A stretch of DNA of 64,000 nucleotides from Hyphomicrobiales bacterium (GTDB lineage: Bacteria > Pseudomonadota > Alphaproteobacteria > Rhizobiales > Aestuariivirgaceae): positions 739,912-803,911 of the forward strand of contig JADJVV010000001.1 in assembly GCA_016710435.1 (NCBI GenBank), given 5' to 3'. Position 1 is the first letter of the stretch, and every line of letters begins with the position of its first letter. Made by a program: the position numbers and the translations under genes. The notes below the pieces were generated by a model. The model was not told where the DNA came from. It searched no databases and saw nothing but the letters and a program-made list of their open reading frames with translations. This document shows, piece after piece, positions 39,615 to 46,574 of this stretch.

Positions 39615-40847
39615 ATGCTTACGAACTTGACGAACTTCCGCGCTTCCACGGCCGGAAATACTGGCGTTATGTTTGCGCTTGTCCTCGTGCCCTTGTTGCT
39701 GGGCGTGGGCGCCGCCGTTGACTACGTACGCCTGAGCGACCGGCAAACCGAGTTGAGCGCGGCACTGGATGGCGCGGCACTCGCTGCGGCAACGGCCAAG
39801 GACGCCACCGAAGCCGACCGCATCAGCATTGCGCGCGACTATTTCGCCAAGAACGTCACCGGCTCCGGCCGTGCCCCTGAGTTGTCCGTCGAGATGAGCG
39901 GCAATTCCATCATGGCGACGGCAAAGGAAGACGTGCCGACGATCCTGATGCAGTTGGGTGGCATTCCCACCATGACCGCCAAGGCCACATCGGAAGTGAT
40001 GCTGCCCAGCGCCGGCAAGGCCGAGGTGGCGCTCGTCCTCGATTATTCCGGCTCCATGTCGGAGTCCGGCAAGTACGTCCGCATGGCCGCTGCTGCCAAG
40101 GACATGGTCACCCGCCTCGCCACCGCCACGGAGCATGGCAACCTCAAGGTTGGGCTCGTGCCGTTTTCCGCCATGGTGCGCACCAGCATGCCATCGGCGA
40201 TGGTGACGCAGGCCGCAGCGGGAGAAACATGGAACGGCTGCACCCAGGACCGCGCCTATCCCAACAACACGGGCGTGGCCAGTCCATCCGGTGGTGCAGA
40301 CAGCAAATGGGGTTATTTCGACAACACGTCCGAGAACAAGGGGGCCTACGATTGCAATGCCTATGCCGCCAAATCGCTGGATATTCTTCCGCTCACGGAT
40401 GATTTCGTCAAGGTCGGCAAGAAGCTCGATGCCATGAGGCCGCTTGGCAACACCAACATCGCGCTGGGCGCCGAATTCGGCTGGAACCTTCTGGATGACG
40501 CCGCTCCCTATGCCCAGGCCGTGCCCTATAACGACAAGGAGACGCGAAAGTACCTGGTGCTGCTGACCGATGGCGTGCAGACGTCCAAGGAGTGGGGACC
40601 AGGCAAGAGCCGCAACATCGAACACGGCCAGAAGAACCTGGTGACGCTCTGCACGGGCATGCGCGCCAAGGGCATCACCGTCTTCACCATCGCCTATGAC
40701 GTGACCGACAAGCAGGTGACGACGCTGCTCAAGAGCTGTGCCCCCGGCAAATATTTCGAGCCGGACGTGGGCGGCAATTCGATCAACCTGGTCTTCTCGG
40801 AAATCACCGCCCAGATCAGCAATGAACTGGTGCGACTCGTCCGCTGA
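39615..40847 (+). CDS. TadE/TadG-like pseudopilin with vWA domain
   Basis: GNTGVMFALVLVPLLLGVGAAVDY, LDGAALAAA; MIDAS LVLDYSGSM, TNIALG, LLTDG. Confidence 0.85.
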   Translation: MLTNLTNFRASTAGNTGVMFALVLVPLLLGVGAAVDYVRLSDRQTELSAALDGAALAAATAKDATEADRISIARDYFAKNVTGSGRAPELSVEMSGNSIMATAKEDVPTILMQLGGIPTMTAKATSEVMLPSAGKAEVALVLDYSGSMSESGKYVRMAAAAKDMVTRLATATEHGNLKVGLVPFSAMVRTSMPSAMVTQAAAGETWNGCTQDRAYPNNTGVASPSGGADSKWGYFDNTSENKGAYDCNAYAAKSLDILPLTDDFVKVGKKLDAMRPLGNTNIALGAEFGWNLLDDAAPYAQAVPYNDKETRKYLVLLTDGVQTSKEWGPGKSRNIEHGQKNLVTLCTGMRAKGITVFTIAYDVTDKQVTTLLKSCAPGKYFEPDVGGNSINLVFSEITAQISNELVRLVR

Positions 40848-40853
40848 CCGTCC

Positions 40854-42479
40854 TCAGCTGCTTTCCGGCACCATGTCGATTGCCCCGCAGGGGCATTCGG
40901 CGGCGCACAGGCCGCAGCCCTTGCAATAGTCGTAGTCGATGCGGAAGCGGTTGCCCGCCCCCAGCTTGATGATGGCGTTGTCCGGGCAGACGCCATAGCA
41001 ATTGTCGCATTCGAAGCAGTTGCCGCAGGAGAGACAGCGCCGCGCCTCGTAGAGCGCGTTCGTCTCGTCAAGCCCGCCCTGCACCTCCGCAAAACTGCGC
41101 ACGCGCCGTGCCGCCTCCAGCATTGGCCGCACCGTGGGCGAGGCATCCTCGTAGTACCAGGTGTTGAGGCGCTCGGGTGACGCGAGTCCATGCTTTTCAG
41201 CCGGCACATAGGGTGCTGCGCGCAGATACCCGTCGATATGGCGCGCGGCTTTCTTGCCGTGCCCCACGGCCACGGTCACGGTGCGTTCGGAGGGCGCCAT
41301 GTCGCCACCCGCGAACACGCCGGCACAACCCGTCATCATGTCGGGACCGACCTTGACCACGCCGTTCTCGATCACCACACCCGGCGCTTTCTCCAGCAAT
41401 GACAGGTCCACGTCCTGCCCCAGCGCGAGCACCAGGCTGTCGGCATCAAGCGTTTCGTATTCGCCCGTCGGCTGCGGAAAACCCTTGTCGTCCAGTGCCA
41501 TCTTTTCGATCTGCAGGGTGCCGCCGTCGATGGTCTTGATGGTGGAGAGCCACTTCATCGAGACGCCCTCTTCCAAAGCCTCTTCCACCTCGAAGTCATG
41601 GGCCGGCATCTTCTCGCGGGTGCGGCGATAGACGATGATTGCTTCCTCGGCCCCAAGACGGCGCGCCGTTCGGGCCACATCGATGGCCGTGTTGCCGCCG
41701 CCATAGACGACGACCTTGCGGCCGAGAAGCGGCGGTGCCTCGCCTTCCATGGACCGTAGCAATTGCACCGCATCCAGCACCTTGGCGGCGCCCGCAGCGG
41801 GAATATAGGCACGCTTGGCAATATGCGCGCCGACGGCGAGGAATGCCGCATCATATCCGCCCGCGATCATCTCCTGCTCGATGTCGGCCACCTTGCTGTC
41901 GAGATGAAGCGTCACGCCCATGTTGGTAATGCGCTTTACTTCCGCGTCGATGATGTGGCGCGGCAGGCGGTACTTCGGGATCCCGAAGCGCATCATGCCA
42001 CCGGCGAGCGGCCCCGCCTCGCGCAACGTGACGCCATGGCCCATGCGCCGCAGGTGATAGGCCGCCGACAGCCCGGCAGGCCCTGCCCCCACCACCAGCA
42101 CCGTCTTGCCGCTTTCAGCCGCAGGCGGATCGAACTGCCAGTCCTTCTCGATCGCAAGATCACCCAGGAAACGTTCCACCGAATTGATGCCGACCGCCTC
42201 GTCGATGCTGGCGCGGTTGCAGGCGCCTTCGCAGGGGTGGTAGCAGACACGGCCCATGATGGCGGGCAGCGGATTGTTCAGCGTGAGGGCGCGCCAGGCC
42301 TTTTCATAGTCACCCGCCTCTGCGTGGAAGAGCCAGGCCTGAATGTCCTCGCCTGCCGGGCAGGCGGCATTGCAGGGCGGCAGGCGGTCCACGTATTCGG
42401 GCCGCACGGTGCGCCAGGAGCCCGTCAGGTTCCGCTTGCTGGTGCCCACATCGAGCGCGATCGCATAGGGATGTTTCAT
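40854..42479 (-). CDS. GltD-like FAD/NAD(P) oxidoreductase fused to a C-terminal 2x[4Fe-4S] (PorD/delta-like) domain
   Basis: CNAACPAG, GRVCYHPCEGAC, GAGPAGL, GGGNTAID; C-terminal CGNCFECDNCYGVCP and CKGCGLCAAECP. Confidence 0.88.
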   Translation of the reverse strand: MKHPYAIALDVGTSKRNLTGSWRTVRPEYVDRLPPCNAACPAGEDIQAWLFHAEAGDYEKAWRALTLNNPLPAIMGRVCYHPCEGACNRASIDEAVGINSVERFLGDLAIEKDWQFDPPAAESGKTVLVVGAGPAGLSAAYHLRRMGHGVTLREAGPLAGGMMRFGIPKYRLPRHIIDAEVKRITNMGVTLHLDSKVADIEQEMIAGGYDAAFLAVGAHIAKRAYIPAAGAAKVLDAVQLLRSMEGEAPPLLGRKVVVYGGGNTAIDVARTARRLGAEEAIIVYRRTREKMPAHDFEVEEALEEGVSMKWLSTIKTIDGGTLQIEKMALDDKGFPQPTGEYETLDADSLVLALGQDVDLSLLEKAPGVVIENGVVKVGPDMMTGCAGVFAGGDMAPSERTVTVAVGHGKKAARHIDGYLRAAPYVPAEKHGLASPERLNTWYYEDASPTVRPMLEAARRVRSFAEVQGGLDETNALYEARRCLSCGNCFECDNCYGVCPDNAIIKLGAGNRFRIDYDYCKGCGLCAAECPCGAIDMVPESS

Positions 42480-43501
42480 GACGCCGCTCCCGTCGTTGCC
42501 TGCGCCACGGCCTCGGTCAATCCGAACTCCGCGATATGACGGTCGGCAATGGCCTGGATGCGCGCCACCCGCGGGTCCGTGACACCCCCCTTGAACAGAT
42601 GGGCAAAACGGCGCTGGAGCCTGAGATACTCCGTCACCGGCTTGGGCTGCCTGATCTTGCGCACATGGGTGATGTGTCCGCCTTCCGCCTCGAAGATGGG
42701 GAACAGGCCTGTTTCAATGGCAAGCCGGGCAAGGCGGATCGTGTCATGCGAGGCCGCACCCCAACCGAGGGGGCACGGCACATTGATCTGGATGTAGCGC
42801 GCACCGCGAATGCCCATCGCCTTTGTCACCTTGGCTTCGAGATCATGCAGGTCGGCGACACTTGCGGTGGCCACATAGGGAATGTCGTGGGCAACCGCGA
42901 TCTTGGGAACAAACTTGCCCGTGCCGAAGACATTGCCGGGCTCATCGCCCAGTGTGGGCGTCGTCGCCGTGCGCGCCGCCGGCGGCGTGGCGGACGAGCG
43001 CTGCACGCCCGTGTTCATGTAGCCTTCGTTGTCATAGCAGATGTAGAGAACGTCATCGTTGCGCTCGAACATGCCGGAGAGGCAGCCGAAACCGATGTCG
43101 GTGGTGCCGCCGTCTCCGCCCTGGGCAACGACGCGCGTGCCCGCGCGCCCCGTGACGCGCATCGCCGCAGCGACGCCCGTTGCCACAGCCGCCGCATTGC
43201 CGAAGAGCGAATGCATCCACGGCATCTGCCACGACGTTTCCGGATAGGGCGTGGTGAAGACCTCCAGACAACCCGTCGCGTTGACGGCGATGAGATTGCC
43301 GCCACTCGCCCGCATGGCGGCATCAATCGCGTAGCGCGCTCCTAGCGCCTCGCCGCAGCCCTGGCAGGCGCGGTGGCCGCAGGTGAGCGAGTTGGAGCGC
43401 GACAGGCTGGCCTGAACATTGCGTTCCGTTTCGTCAATGAGGCGGTTGCCGACAGTGAGCGTACCCTTCTGGTAGAATTTGAGCTTCTGGATCTCGTTCA
43501 T
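42476..43501 (-). CDS. 2-oxoacid:acceptor oxidoreductase beta subunit (TPP-binding, PorB-like)
   Basis: GHRACQGCG, NATGCLE, GGDGGTTDIG, YDNEGYMNTG, VPCPLGW; TGATG coupling with the alpha subunit. Confidence 0.9.
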   Translation of the reverse strand: MNEIQKLKFYQKGTLTVGNRLIDETERNVQASLSRSNSLTCGHRACQGCGEALGARYAIDAAMRASGGNLIAVNATGCLEVFTTPYPETSWQMPWMHSLFGNAAAVATGVAAAMRVTGRAGTRVVAQGGDGGTTDIGFGCLSGMFERNDDVLYICYDNEGYMNTGVQRSSATPPAARTATTPTLGDEPGNVFGTGKFVPKIAVAHDIPYVATASVADLHDLEAKVTKAMGIRGARYIQINVPCPLGWGAASHDTIRLARLAIETGLFPIFEAEGGHITHVRKIRQPKPVTEYLRLQRRFAHLFKGGVTDPRVARIQAIADRHIAEFGLTEAVAQATTGAAS

Positions 43502-44808
43502 CACGATGTCTCCTTCTCCGCCGCTGCCTGGCGTTCGGCGTCGGCGCGCTGGGCCCGCTCGGCCCGCTCGCGCTCGAGAATCTTCAACACATTCTCCGCC
43601 GATGGGCCCGACCGCCGCGCCTTGCCCTTGCGATGGATTTCCCGCGCGATGACACGCTCGTTGAGGTCCATGAAATGCGGACCTTCCCACGGCTGGATCA
43701 GCGCCTGGCGGAAGACGCGGTGCAGCGATGCCTTGGTGACGGGACGGCCACCCAGCCCTGCGATCACCGCGTGCATGTGGGGCGATTGCGGCATGTCGCG
43801 CAGCGCGATGGCGATGTTGCTCGCCAATGGTCCGCCCATTCCCGGATCGAGGCTCTTGTCGATCACGATCACGTCGCGCGCCTGCGTCAGCACCTCGCGC
43901 AACGCCTTGGCCGGGAACGGCCGGAAGGTGACGAGACTGACAAGGCCGATGAGAATGCCTTCGCCCCGCATCTCATCGATGACATCCTTGATGGTGCCGT
44001 TGATCGAACCCATCGCAACGACCACCGTCTCGGCATCGTCCATGGCGTAGCTCCGCAGCAATCCCCCGGCTTCGCGCCCGAAGCGCTGCCTGAAATCGCG
44101 CGCCATCTGCTCGATCAGGCGAAACGCCGTCTGCTGCTTGTAGAATTGCAAGTAGCGCACCTCCGTGAAGGCATCGGGCCCCACCATCGCGCCGATGGAG
44201 ATCGGATCTTCCGGGTCCAGCACCTGCACCGGTTCATAAGGAGGCAGGTAGGCATCCACATCCGCTTGCGCGGGAATGTCGATCCGTTCCATGGCATGCG
44301 TGAGGATGAAGCCATCCACGCAGACCATCGTGGGCACGGACAATTCTTCCGCCAGCTTGAAGGCGATGACGTGAAGGTCGGCTGCTTCCTGGTTGTGCTC
44401 GGCAAAAAGCTGTATCCACCCCGACTCGCGGAGCGCCATGGCATCGGAGTGATCGTTCCAGATGTTGATGGGCGCGCCGATGGCACGGTTGCCCAGCGTC
44501 ATCACGATGGGAAGGCCGAGCCCCGCCGCGTTGTAGACCGCCTCCGCCATGAACAGGAGACCCTGGCTGGCCGTGGCCGTATAGGCGCGGGCTCCCGCCG
44601 CAGAGGCGCCGATCGCCACCGACAGGGCCGCGAACTCGCTTTCCACATTGATGAACTCGCAGTTCTGCACATCACCCGTGCGGACCAGTTCACCCAGTCC
44701 TTCCACGATATGCGTCTGCGGCGTGATCGGATAGGCACAGACCACCTGAGGGCGGCAGAGGCCGATCACCTTCGCCATGGCCTTGGAGCCTTCGATTTGC
44801 TCAAGCAT
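43501..44808 (-). CDS. 2-oxoacid:acceptor oxidoreductase alpha subunit (PorA-like)
   Basis: AYPITPQTHIVE, VESEFAALS, TATASQGL, WNDHSD, DGFILTH. Confidence 0.9.
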   Translation of the reverse strand: MLEQIEGSKAMAKVIGLCRPQVVCAYPITPQTHIVEGLGELVRTGDVQNCEFINVESEFAALSVAIGASAAGARAYTATASQGLLFMAEAVYNAAGLGLPIVMTLGNRAIGAPINIWNDHSDAMALRESGWIQLFAEHNQEAADLHVIAFKLAEELSVPTMVCVDGFILTHAMERIDIPAQADVDAYLPPYEPVQVLDPEDPISIGAMVGPDAFTEVRYLQFYKQQTAFRLIEQMARDFRQRFGREAGGLLRSYAMDDAETVVVAMGSINGTIKDVIDEMRGEGILIGLVSLVTFRPFPAKALREVLTQARDVIVIDKSLDPGMGGPLASNIAIALRDMPQSPHMHAVIAGLGGRPVTKASLHRVFRQALIQPWEGPHFMDLNERVIAREIHRKGKARRSGPSAENVLKILERERAERAQRADAERQAAAEKETS

Positions 44809-45403
44809 GGAGAGCCTCCCGTGCAGCGGCCGCCGGACGGCCCAAGGCTGCGGCAACAATGTCATGGGCGGCGCGGGCGGCAATCACGTTGGCCTCGCCC
44901 ACCTTGCCGGGAAACGTGCGGCGGATCGCTTCCAGCACGGACGCGAGCGAGACAAGTCCTGACATCGCGGTGAACGCACCAAGGAGCGAGGTATTGGGCG
45001 CGGGCCTGCCCACGTGGCTGAGCGCCAGTTCCGTGGCAGCGACGGTTTGCGCATGGCCTTGCGACAGCCGTGCGGCAATGGCGTCCTGATGAAGGTCCGC
45101 GAAGCTCTTGCCGGTGTTGACCAGCAAATATCCGCTCGGCGAGAGGCCCTCCAGCACATCCATGGCACGGAAAAGGGTGGCATCCTGCACGATCAGCGCA
45201 TCAGGATTCTGGATCGGTTCGCGCAGGCGGATTTCGCGATCGGAAATGCGGCAGAAGGCAACAACCGGTGCGCCCATGCGCTCGGAGCCGAAACTGGGAA
45301 AGGCCTGGGCGTGTTTGCCTTCGATGAAGGCCGCAACCGAGAGCATCTCCGCCGCCGTCACGACTCCCTGCCCGCCCCGTCCGTGAATCCGAACCTGAAA
45401 CAT
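44801..45403 (-). CDS. 2-oxoacid:acceptor oxidoreductase gamma subunit (PorC-like)
   Basis: RIHGRGGQGVVTAA, FPSFGSERMGAPV, PNTSLLGA. Confidence 0.9.
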   Translation of the reverse strand: MFQVRIHGRGGQGVVTAAEMLSVAAFIEGKHAQAFPSFGSERMGAPVVAFCRISDREIRLREPIQNPDALIVQDATLFRAMDVLEGLSPSGYLLVNTGKSFADLHQDAIAARLSQGHAQTVAATELALSHVGRPAPNTSLLGAFTAMSGLVSLASVLEAIRRTFPGKVGEANVIAARAAHDIVAAALGRPAAAAREALHA

Positions 45404-45461
45404 CAGCGTCTCCCATCGGCCGTCAACCGGGGGAGTTGTAACATCCGTCGGGTGGCGCGAC

Positions 45462-45475
45462 TTGACTCACATCAA
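45462..45475 (-). promoter_or_regulatory. FNR/FixK (CRP-FNR family) box
   Basis: TTGACTCACATCAA (minus: TTGATGTGAGTCAA), 9/10 match to TTGAT-N4-ATCAA, centred 65.5 bp upstream of the gamma-subunit ATG. Confidence 0.75.
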
Positions 45476-45512
45476 GCCGCCAGCGCGGAGCACGTGCTTT
45501 GCAGGAGGCCCG

Positions 45513-46574
45513 CTAGACTTTCTCGCGGAATTTCTCGACGTAGACGTTGATGACAAGGGCCGCCAGCAGGATGAGGCCGCGGATCAGGATTTTCTGGAAC
45601 GAATCCATCTGGATATGATCCAGTCCGTTGTTCACCACGCCAAGCACAAGGAGACCGATGATGGTATTCCCGATCCCGCCCCTTCCGCCGAACAGGCTGG
45701 TGCCGCCCACCACAACGGCGGCAATGGCATCCAGCAAGTATGTATCGAACTGGTTCTGCTGGGCCGAGCCGAAGTAGGCCACGCCCAGCATGCCGGCGAT
45801 GCCAGAGCACAACGCGCTGATGACCATGACGGAGCCGATGACCAGCTTCACGTTGACGCCCGAATATTCCGCCGCCTCGCGGTTGCCGCCCACCATGTAA
45901 ACGTAGCGCCCGAAACGCGTGTAGGTCAGCACCAGATGCCCGACGATGAAGAAGATGAGGCAAACGATGATGGTCCAGCCCACGGGAATGAACAGCGCCT
46001 TCCCAGCCGCATCGACGCCCAGCGGAATCTGGAATGCCGTCTTGGCACCAAGCAGAGTCACGAGGTCCGGATACTGGTAGGCAATCTGGCCCCGCACCAG
46101 CAGCGCCGAAACGCCATTGGCAATCTGCATGATGGCGAGCGTCATGATGAAGGACGGGATGCCGATCGATGTCATGCCGAAGGCCGTGATCAGCCCGAAG
46201 GCCAGCGCCGACATCAGCGTCAGGATGATCGCCAGTGCACCATTCAGCGGAATGTTGGCGATGTTCACGTAGTCCGGCTGTATGGTGAAATAGGCGACCG
46301 TGATGCCGACGGCATTGGCGACGGCGGCCACCGACAGATCAATCTCCGCCGTGAGAATGACGAAGGTGAGGCCAACCGCGATGATGCCCGTGATGGACAT
46401 CTGCCGGATGATGTTCACCGCGTTGTCGAGCGTGGCGAAAGTCGTGGTGGTGGAAGAGAAGAACACCACCAGCGCCACGAGGGTGAGCAGCGGCGCCAGC
46501 GTACGCAGCTTGTCGGCGATGGCCCGCTTGGGATTGAAGCTCTTGGCGGCGGCGGTATCTGTGCTCACGTTCAT
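45513..46574 (-). CDS. Sugar ABC transporter permease (CUT2)
   Basis: AEIDLSVAA, PSFIMTLA, YMVGGNREAAEYSGV, LDAIAAVVVGGTSL. Confidence 0.9.
   Translation of the reverse strand: MNVSTDTAAAKSFNPKRAIADKLRTLAPLLTLVALVVFFSSTTTTFATLDNAVNIIRQMSITGIIAVGLTFVILTAEIDLSVAAVANAVGITVAYFTIQPDYVNIANIPLNGALAIILTLMSALAFGLITAFGMTSIGIPSFIMTLAIMQIANGVSALLVRGQIAYQYPDLVTLLGAKTAFQIPLGVDAAGKALFIPVGWTIIVCLIFFIVGHLVLTYTRFGRYVYMVGGNREAAEYSGVNVKLVIGSVMVISALCSGIAGMLGVAYFGSAQQNQFDTYLLDAIAAVVVGGTSLFGGRGGIGNTIIGLLVLGVVNNGLDHIQMDSFQKILIRGLILLAALVINVYVEKFREKV

Follow-up and report, generated by a model that had tools for sequence, protein, structure and literature searches.

A putative low-oxygen pyruvate:NADP+ oxidoreductase with a flavoprotein module inserted into its PorD-type subunit in a Hyphomicrobiales bacterium

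Introduction

Textbook pyruvate:ferredoxin oxidoreductases (PFORs) feed a pool of low-potential ferredoxin, and their presence is treated as the mark of an anaerobe. The pyruvate:NADP+ oxidoreductase of Euglena and Cryptosporidium is a single-chain PFOR that carries a C-terminal cytochrome-P450-reductase-type FMN/FAD domain; for this enzyme PMC13768988 cites Rotte et al. 2001. The 2-oxoglutarate:NADP+ oxidoreductase of Azoarcus evansii (Ebenau-Jehle, Boll and Fuchs 2003, cited in PMC10134865) acts on 2-oxoglutarate. Its flavoprotein is reportedly a subunit in its own right and does not interrupt PorD. Here we analyse a four-gene operon for a 2-oxoacid oxidoreductase (positions 40854-45403, minus strand) that lies in a 64,000-nucleotide stretch of DNA (the window) from contig JADJVV010000001.1 of a Hyphomicrobiales bacterium. 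We refer to the operon and its relatives as the cassette.

The NADP subunit of the Azoarcus enzyme is grouped with GltD homologues (PMC10134865). A GltD domain also occurs in StnC, where it occupies residues 102-565, between an N-terminal [2Fe-2S] part and the remainder of a NuoG-like scaffold (PMC10482914). There it binds NADPH, FAD and two [4Fe-4S] clusters and feeds a linear chain of clusters, and its flavin does not bifurcate (PMC10482914). For four-subunit PFORs the usual gene order is porC-porD-porA-porB, according to a November 2026 review (PMC13768988). That survey of PFOR diversity covers one-, two-, four- and five-subunit forms only (PMC13768988).

The reading that we favour, and consider probable though well short of settled, is that the four gene products form a pyruvate:NADP+ oxidoreductase complex induced at low oxygen. 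Complex formation, substrate, nucleotide, direction of electron flow and regulation are all inferred here from sequence, gene order and structural comparison. We regard the cassette itself as real and well conserved, with a function that can be predicted from these comparisons with fair confidence.

Results

The operon comprises genes for a PorC-like gamma subunit (44801-45403; 200 amino acids (aa); Pfam POR, 139.5 bits), a PorA-like alpha subunit (43501-44808; 435 aa; POR_N, 229.8 bits, and PFOR_II, 88.9 bits), a PorB-like beta subunit with a thiamine pyrophosphate (TPP) site and one [4Fe-4S] site (42476-43501; 341 aa; TPP_enzyme_C, 65 bits) and, fourth, a flavoprotein (40854-42479; 541 aa) with Fer4_20 and Pyr_redox_2 domains and a C-terminal 4Fe-4S dicluster. 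All lie on the minus strand. Membership of the 2-oxoacid:ferredoxin oxidoreductase (OFOR) superfamily is indicated by alpha, beta and gamma Pfam scores well over cut-off, the TPP motif and the cysteines of beta. The gamma and alpha genes meet at ATGCTTGA, an 8-nt overlap in which the alpha ATG lies inside and overlaps the gamma stop codon. Alpha and beta share 1 nt in TGATG (4 nt if GTG is the beta start), with AAGGAG seven bases 5' of the beta ATG, and beta and the flavoprotein gene share the 4 nt of ATGA. Because the junctions overlap by 8, 1 and 4 nt, the arrangement fits translational coupling.

The genome (4.37 Mb, 99.6% complete) contains a single POR_N gene, the alpha gene of this operon, which makes the operon its only OFOR. 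The sole PorD match above cut-off in the whole genome lies within the flavoprotein gene, and so no separate delta gene is present. An original prediction, made from the sequence of the window without database searches, had described gamma, alpha and beta subunits plus a 541-aa Fe-S flavoprotein, with overlaps at every junction and no stand-alone delta gene. The open reading frames and the Pfam and NCBIfam domains agree with that description, the overlaps can be read directly, and the absence of a delta gene extends to the genome-wide profile search.

The outer parts of the flavoprotein are recognizable as PorD. Residues 1-34 (42378-42479, minus strand) form a PorD N-terminal arm with the motif TGSWR..RP. 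The first 40 residues match positions 5-30 of the PorD_Arch model (E 3.3e-4), and their sole PDB match, a weak one (E 0.29 in a search of 177,635 sequences), is to residues 8-30 of the PorD chain 9bt4_G, from the four-subunit PFOR of Methanosarcina acetivorans. At the opposite end, residues 487-541 and the stop codon (40854-41021, minus strand) form a PorD core for two [4Fe-4S] clusters. The region 485-539 scores 69.4 bits against TIGR02179 PorD_KorD (cut-off 60.05), and the core also matches PorD_Arch positions 26-84 and residues 32-83 of 9bt4_G. Arm and core are collinear with one PorD. The core contains two CxxCxxCxxxCP motifs, formed by C488, C491, C494 and C498 and by C519, C522, C525 and C529.

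Inserted after the arm is a GltD/NfnB-type module (residues 35-420; 41220-42377, minus strand), identified by Pfam matches to Fer4_20 (74 bits) and Pyr_redox_2 (116.8 bits) and by alignment to NfnB and StnC. Its Fe-S domain has the ligands C36, C40, C79, C83, C87 and E102, its FAD fold the motif GAGPAG at residues 131-136 and its NAD(P)H fold GGGNTA at residues 260-265. Sequence matches of the flavoprotein in the PDB include NfnB (4ylf_B and 5jca_L) and also 2vdc_G.

The order of segments within the module differs from that of NfnB. Residues 35-420 align to NfnB (4ylf_B, 5jca_L) from the 'PC..GCP' motif onward, and the N-terminus of NfnB, which holds the RCLQC segment, aligns far downstream, with NfnB residues 15-43 and 12-58 placed on flavoprotein residues 458-486 and 452-500, respectively. 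The Pfam match to Fer4_20 is split as well: residues 34-113 correspond to model positions 30-112, and residues ~460-503 to model positions 2-41. A contiguous N-terminal Fer4_20 domain starting with RCxxC is absent; the segment follows the flavin domains, as a displaced first Fer4_20 segment (residues ~452-486; 41022-41126, minus strand) that ends in R-C482-x2-C485. The module aligns contiguously with StnC (8oh5_C residues 99-574, flavoprotein residues 31-492) and with Nfn-ABC (9bov_A residues 99-575). As judged from these alignments, the GltD/NfnB-type module is a circular permutant. Since permutation joins its two ends, it would be well suited to insertion.

The original prediction had the delta ferredoxin fused to a GltD-like module. 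The two do occur in one protein, yet the PorD_Arch, NfnB and two-piece Fer4_20 matches show that PorD is split around the module rather than appended to it, and a split PorD with an inserted module therefore replaces a simple C-terminal delta fusion. An AlphaFold2 model of the flavoprotein (pLDDT 93, pTM 0.91) has 9bov_A, 8oh5_C and 9n5u_A as its top Foldseek matches (TMq about 0.8, probability 1.00). In an alignment of 50 diverse relatives (mean identity 40%), E102 and 15 cysteines are invariant, namely 36, 40, 79, 83, 87, 482 and 485 together with the eight of the PorD core; these columns fit two GltD-type and two PorD clusters. The protein also belongs, nearly end to end, to the NCBIfam family NF009410 (PRK12771, 'NAD(P)-binding protein'), scoring 766.1 bits (cut-off 516) with residues 8-539 aligned to positions 22-565 of the 566-position model.

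Gene order connects the flavoprotein to the rest of the operon. We compared 80 genome loci that encode flavoprotein relatives at 61-84% identity, spanning Pseudomonadota (Alpha-, Beta- and Gammaproteobacteria), Actinomycetota and Acidobacteriota (one Bryobacteraceae genome). The order gamma-alpha-beta-flavoprotein holds in 80/80, as far as each contig reaches, and a comparison of these loci showed no conserved fifth gene and no conserved ferredoxin gene in the cassette. Elsewhere the parts are fused. Proteins of ~750 aa are gamma-GltD-delta fusions, and at one metagenome locus (L082:5001-11796) a gene for one of 755 aa precedes a gene for a 707-aa fusion of alpha and beta. Directly downstream of this two-gene form lie genes for a LarA-type lactate racemase and an Ldh_2-family dehydrogenase. 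In three longer proteins (P0187, P0225 and P0200; ~1,000-1,130 aa), POR_N and TPP_enzyme_C have an IorA-like layout and are joined to the same GltD module and to a dicluster at the end of the chain. It seems that a second superfamily branch has also received the NADP module.

By analogy with the 9bt4-type architecture, the PorD arm would anchor delta on the core. Because this arm is kept, the gene order is constant and covalent fusions occur elsewhere, the flavoprotein is best regarded as a subunit. The same three observations give strong comparative support to the predicted self-contained, NAD(P)-linked oxidoreductase with a flavoprotein subunit. In a further protein, P0246 (914 aa), the GltD module comes after a DHO_dh domain, and the protein resembles a single-chain dihydropyrimidine dehydrogenase with its domains in reverse order.

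To address the substrate, we scored the subunits with NCBIfam models, which stand here in place of a phylogeny with reference enzymes of the Por, Vor, Kor and Pad types. Gamma reaches 200.8 bits against TIGR02175 PorC_KorC (cut-off 81.1) and 203-207 bits against PorC equivalog models, under their cut-offs (207 versus 225). The other subunits also miss their equivalog cut-offs: alpha scores 444 bits against PorA_Arch (cut-off 550), beta 328.8 bits against the PorB model PRK11865 (cut-off 405) and the flavoprotein 75 bits against PorD_Arch (cut-off 120). With every Por equivalog cut-off missed, the cassette is a distinct subfamily nearest to Por. For alpha the scores by class are Por 444, Vor 298, Pad 285 and oxalate 251 bits, and for beta Por 329, Vor 285, Pad 188 and oxalate 230 bits, so that Por models beat Vor by 146 bits (alpha) and 44 bits (beta).

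Among solved structures the nearest relatives are 9bt4_B for alpha (367.7 bits) and 9bt4_C for beta (303.9 bits), with oxalate oxidoreductase next. The alpha YPITP motif with T29, together with R108 and I116, aligns to T31, R114 and I123 of the D. africanus PFOR, and beta N163 aligns to its N996. The alpha-side pocket stretch APINIWNDH agrees with the solved M. acetivorans PFOR, and beta has the GDG...N thiamine motif and four cysteines aligned to the cluster ligands of 9bt4_C and 1b0p_A. The contact residues of alpha and beta being identical to those of solved PFORs, the substrate, left as unknown in the original prediction, is probably pyruvate.

Both catalytic subunits carry extensions. Alpha has a charged, Arg/Glu/Ala-rich C-terminal tail of ~65 residues past the PorA core (residues ~371-435; 43501-43695), and the N-terminus of beta is ~30 residues longer. 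As alpha and beta are one 707-aa protein at the metagenome locus L082, these tails may match the linker of that fusion.

The nucleotide may be read from the second dinucleotide fold, which ends in Y284-R285-R286-T-R288 and aligns with the YRR of NfnB and StnC. In dihydropyrimidine dehydrogenase, basic residues hold the 2'-phosphate. On this basis and by the usual motif rule the predicted NAD(P) link can be narrowed, and the nucleotide is probably NADP. A Glu at position 286 is an NADH-type signature. Such a Glu, often with Leu at 285, is found in 12/50 diverse relatives, which suggests that the family probably holds both NADH- and NADPH-linked members. As to direction, oxidation of pyruvate lies near -500 mV and NADP+ at -320 mV; given this difference, pyruvate should be the electron donor and NADP+ the acceptor, and NADPH by itself cannot drive the reaction backwards.

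Upstream of the operon, in the 109-bp gap between an ABC permease gene and gamma, an FNR/FixK-type palindrome, TTGATGTGAGTCAA (45462-45475, minus strand), starts 72 nt before the gamma ATG. In 15/67 related loci, all 15 of them non-actinobacterial, the 250 nt upstream of gamma contain TTGA-N6-TCAA, with 0.0086 occurrences expected per 250 nt. The genome has another site of this type, TTGATCTGAATCAA, at C1:1863988 (outside the window), ~100 nt ahead of where ccoN of a cbb3 oxidase operon probably starts. Genome-wide, TTGA-N6-TCAA is found 73 times where composition predicts 19, which points to an FNR/FixK-type regulon of considerable size. The upstream site suggests that the operon may be induced at low oxygen. 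The lineage had been presumed aerobic, a description that the cbb3 oxidase of the genome and the FNR/FixK-type box of the operon qualify. A scan of 40600-45700 for sigma-70 promoters and intrinsic terminators returned none exceeding the shuffled background.

At the downstream end, a TadG/vWA-like gene (39615-40847, plus strand) converges on the operon; only 6 nt separate its end from the stop codon of the flavoprotein gene, and no hairpin resembling a terminator was detected in the interval. No amino-acid catabolic genes flank the operon. Elsewhere the genome carries six E1-type dehydrogenase genes, a polyhydroxyalkanoate synthase and an acetate kinase. A role in nitrogen fixation was considered and set aside, as the genome has no real NifH, just a 26-bit P-loop match.

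The nearest named relatives of the flavoprotein are in Aestuariivirga (83-84% identity). An orthologue (E < 1e-150) is present in 22/301 sampled genomes of the order (~7%), representing 13/129 genera, and in 3/7 genomes of the bacterium's own genus. In a FastTree tree of 81 flavoproteins, Actinomycetota stand apart from Pseudomonadota, and Alpha-, Beta- and Gammaproteobacteria are intermixed. The cassette thus looks accessory and mobile, and we claim no direction of transfer. Carriers include many aerobic or microaerobic bacteria of soil, water and gut, among them Azospirillum formosense, Rubrivivax sp., Aquabacterium humicola, Sulfurisoma sediminicola and Magnetovibrio blakemorei, as well as one Pelagibacteraceae genome of an oxygen-minimum zone. 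This genome, from 300 m in the eastern tropical North Pacific (L059), encodes a flavoprotein at 65% identity with beta upstream. It is streamlined, and its presence among the carriers is unexpected.

Discussion

In the complex that we propose, alpha, beta, gamma and the split delta (delta') would assemble into one enzyme, probably a dimer of alpha-beta-gamma-delta' units as in other enzymes of the superfamily. As the module is inserted between the PorD arm and the cluster core, delta' should dock on the core as PorD does. Pyruvate would be oxidatively decarboxylated to acetyl-CoA and CO2, with the electrons delivered to NADP+ within the same complex. They would pass from TPP in beta to the beta [4Fe-4S] cluster, the two [4Fe-4S] clusters of the PorD core, the two of the GltD module, FAD and finally NADP+. 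The drop from about -500 to -320 mV would make the reaction effectively one-way in the oxidative direction. At low oxygen the complex could take the place of an NADH-sensitive pyruvate dehydrogenase and yield NADPH, and we hypothesize that its acetyl-CoA is directed to polyhydroxyalkanoate or acetate.

Several points weigh against this proposal. Genes for pyruvate-dehydrogenase-type E1 are already present in the genome, so the physiological need for a second route is a matter of argument. Pyruvate is not assured as the substrate, given that all four subunits fall below the NCBIfam Por equivalog cut-offs, and the contact residues that we checked may be kept in 2-oxoisovalerate enzymes too. The motif rule is the sole basis for assigning NADP rather than NAD, the TTGA-N6-TCAA box accompanies only 15/67 related loci, and our literature search found no biochemical study of the GltD-PorD architecture.

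Other readings of the operon share much of this evidence. The same NADP-linked machine could have 2-oxobutyrate, branched-chain 2-oxoacids or glyoxylate as its physiological substrate. This would agree with the missed equivalog cut-offs and the appreciable Vor scores of alpha (298 bits) and beta (285 bits), and many characterised enzymes of the superfamily do take several 2-oxoacids (PMC13768988). We nevertheless regard it as rather unlikely, given the lead of Por over Vor in both subunits (146 and 44 bits), the shared APINIWNDH stretch, the conserved T29, R108, I116 and N163, and the lack of amino-acid catabolic genes beside the operon. The neighbours of the fused two-gene variant, genes for lactate racemase and a lactate/malate dehydrogenase, also point to pyruvate, which such enzymes make. 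A different objection concerns direction, since the homologous modules of GltS, Nfn and Stn draw electrons from NADPH and PorD clusters ordinarily face soluble ferredoxin. The flavoprotein might then run in reverse, with NADPH reducing the clusters for activation or repair, or the complex might mainly feed soluble ferredoxin or flavodoxin. Thermodynamics favour flow from pyruvate to NADP+, however, and the cassette has no conserved ferredoxin gene. The module, moreover, interrupts PorD precisely at its cluster domain and takes the place of any separate delta in the genome, which would put it in line with the exit path and not beside it, and we judge a reversed or ferredoxin-directed flow quite improbable.

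The module is also homologous to NfnB, whose FAD bifurcates, and its flavin could have kept or regained bifurcation or confurcation, coupling NADPH to a second partner, for example to drive pyruvate synthesis. A synthase role would require this, because NADPH alone cannot drive the reverse reaction. In a bifurcating form, NADPH and a second, high-potential acceptor would push electrons uphill into the clusters, giving facultative aerobes an NADPH-driven pyruvate synthase, a prospect to which we assign very little weight. Among solved structures the module is closest to StnC and the NfnA chain of Nfn-ABC, and the flavin of StnC is non-bifurcating and feeds a linear chain (PMC10482914). The operon has no NfnA-type [2Fe-2S]/FAD partner or HydBC-like module, and no fifth gene is conserved across the 80 loci. 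Signs of an autotrophic ferredoxin economy are likewise lacking: the search for nitrogenase was negative, and the genome has a single OFOR. All this makes bifurcation highly improbable in our view. Finally, the database names 'glutamate synthase' and 'NAD(P)-binding protein' imply a stand-alone enzyme, which would here merely adjoin an incomplete three-subunit oxidoreductase. That is scarcely credible for a gene that overlaps beta at ATGA, carries both halves of PorD, is always fourth in related loci and is fused to gamma or IorA-like chains elsewhere, in a genome with separate GltD-type genes at other locations.

If the proposed pyruvate:NADP+ oxidoreductase is real, the cassette would join the Euglena-type fusion and the three-subunit Azoarcus enzyme as a third independent wiring of such an enzyme to pyridine nucleotide. 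Counts of 'PFOR' genes in metagenomes would then overstate ferredoxin-based metabolism. The carriers would own a low-oxygen route around pyruvate dehydrogenase that is insensitive to NADH and yields NADPH, and the permuted GltD module would be a portable NADP plug found in unrelated Fe-S scaffolds (StnC, PorD and IorA-like chains).

With the four-subunit PorABCD enzyme (9bt4), the nearest solved relative of its alpha, beta and gamma subunits, the cassette shares the TPP motif, the cysteines of the beta cluster, the residues that contact pyruvate, and the PorD arm and core. It differs in that a flavoprotein module of ~450 residues splits delta, that no small stand-alone delta exists and that the predicted acceptor is NADP+ instead of free ferredoxin. 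Its gene order, C-A-B-delta', also departs from the porC-porD-porA-porB of most four-subunit enzymes. PadEFGHI, the phenylglyoxylate:NAD+ oxidoreductase put forward for comparison in the original prediction, likewise combines Por-like gamma, delta, alpha and beta subunits with a nucleotide-binding flavoprotein, but its delta is a separate protein. The PadH model gives no match at the flavoprotein gene, its best matches in the genome lying elsewhere, which suggests that the two nucleotide modules are not homologous beyond the Rossmann fold. The other Pad models fall far under their cut-offs (PadE 146/300, PadG 285/700, PadI 188/700, PadF 36/150 bits). PadEFGHI can thus stand as a functional analogue, and membership of the Pad family is rejected.

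In working principle and module type, the nearest precedent is the Azoarcus enzyme, a superfamily oxidoreductase joined to an NADP-reducing subunit. The core of that enzyme is of the two-subunit KorAB type, whereas the cassette alpha scores only 104.7 bits against OAFO_sf (cut-off 482.75) and beta 30-51 bits against Kor/Oor beta models, which places the cassette outside the Azoarcus-type KorAB group. The permuted GltD-type module itself is shared with StnC of Sporomusa ovata StnABC and with the NfnA chain of Nfn-ABC (8oh5, 9bov, 9n5u). In StnC, however, the host scaffold is NuoG/FdhF-like and sits on a bifurcating HydBC-type module, and electrons run inward from NADPH. The enzyme of Euglena and Cryptosporidium resembles the cassette in that a covalent flavoprotein hard-wires pyruvate oxidation to NADP+, as we predict for the latter. 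Its cytochrome-P450-reductase-type domain is absent from the cassette according to Pfam, and the two look like independent solutions. The family is already catalogued as NF009410, and the cassette adds a further architecture to a known type of enzyme.

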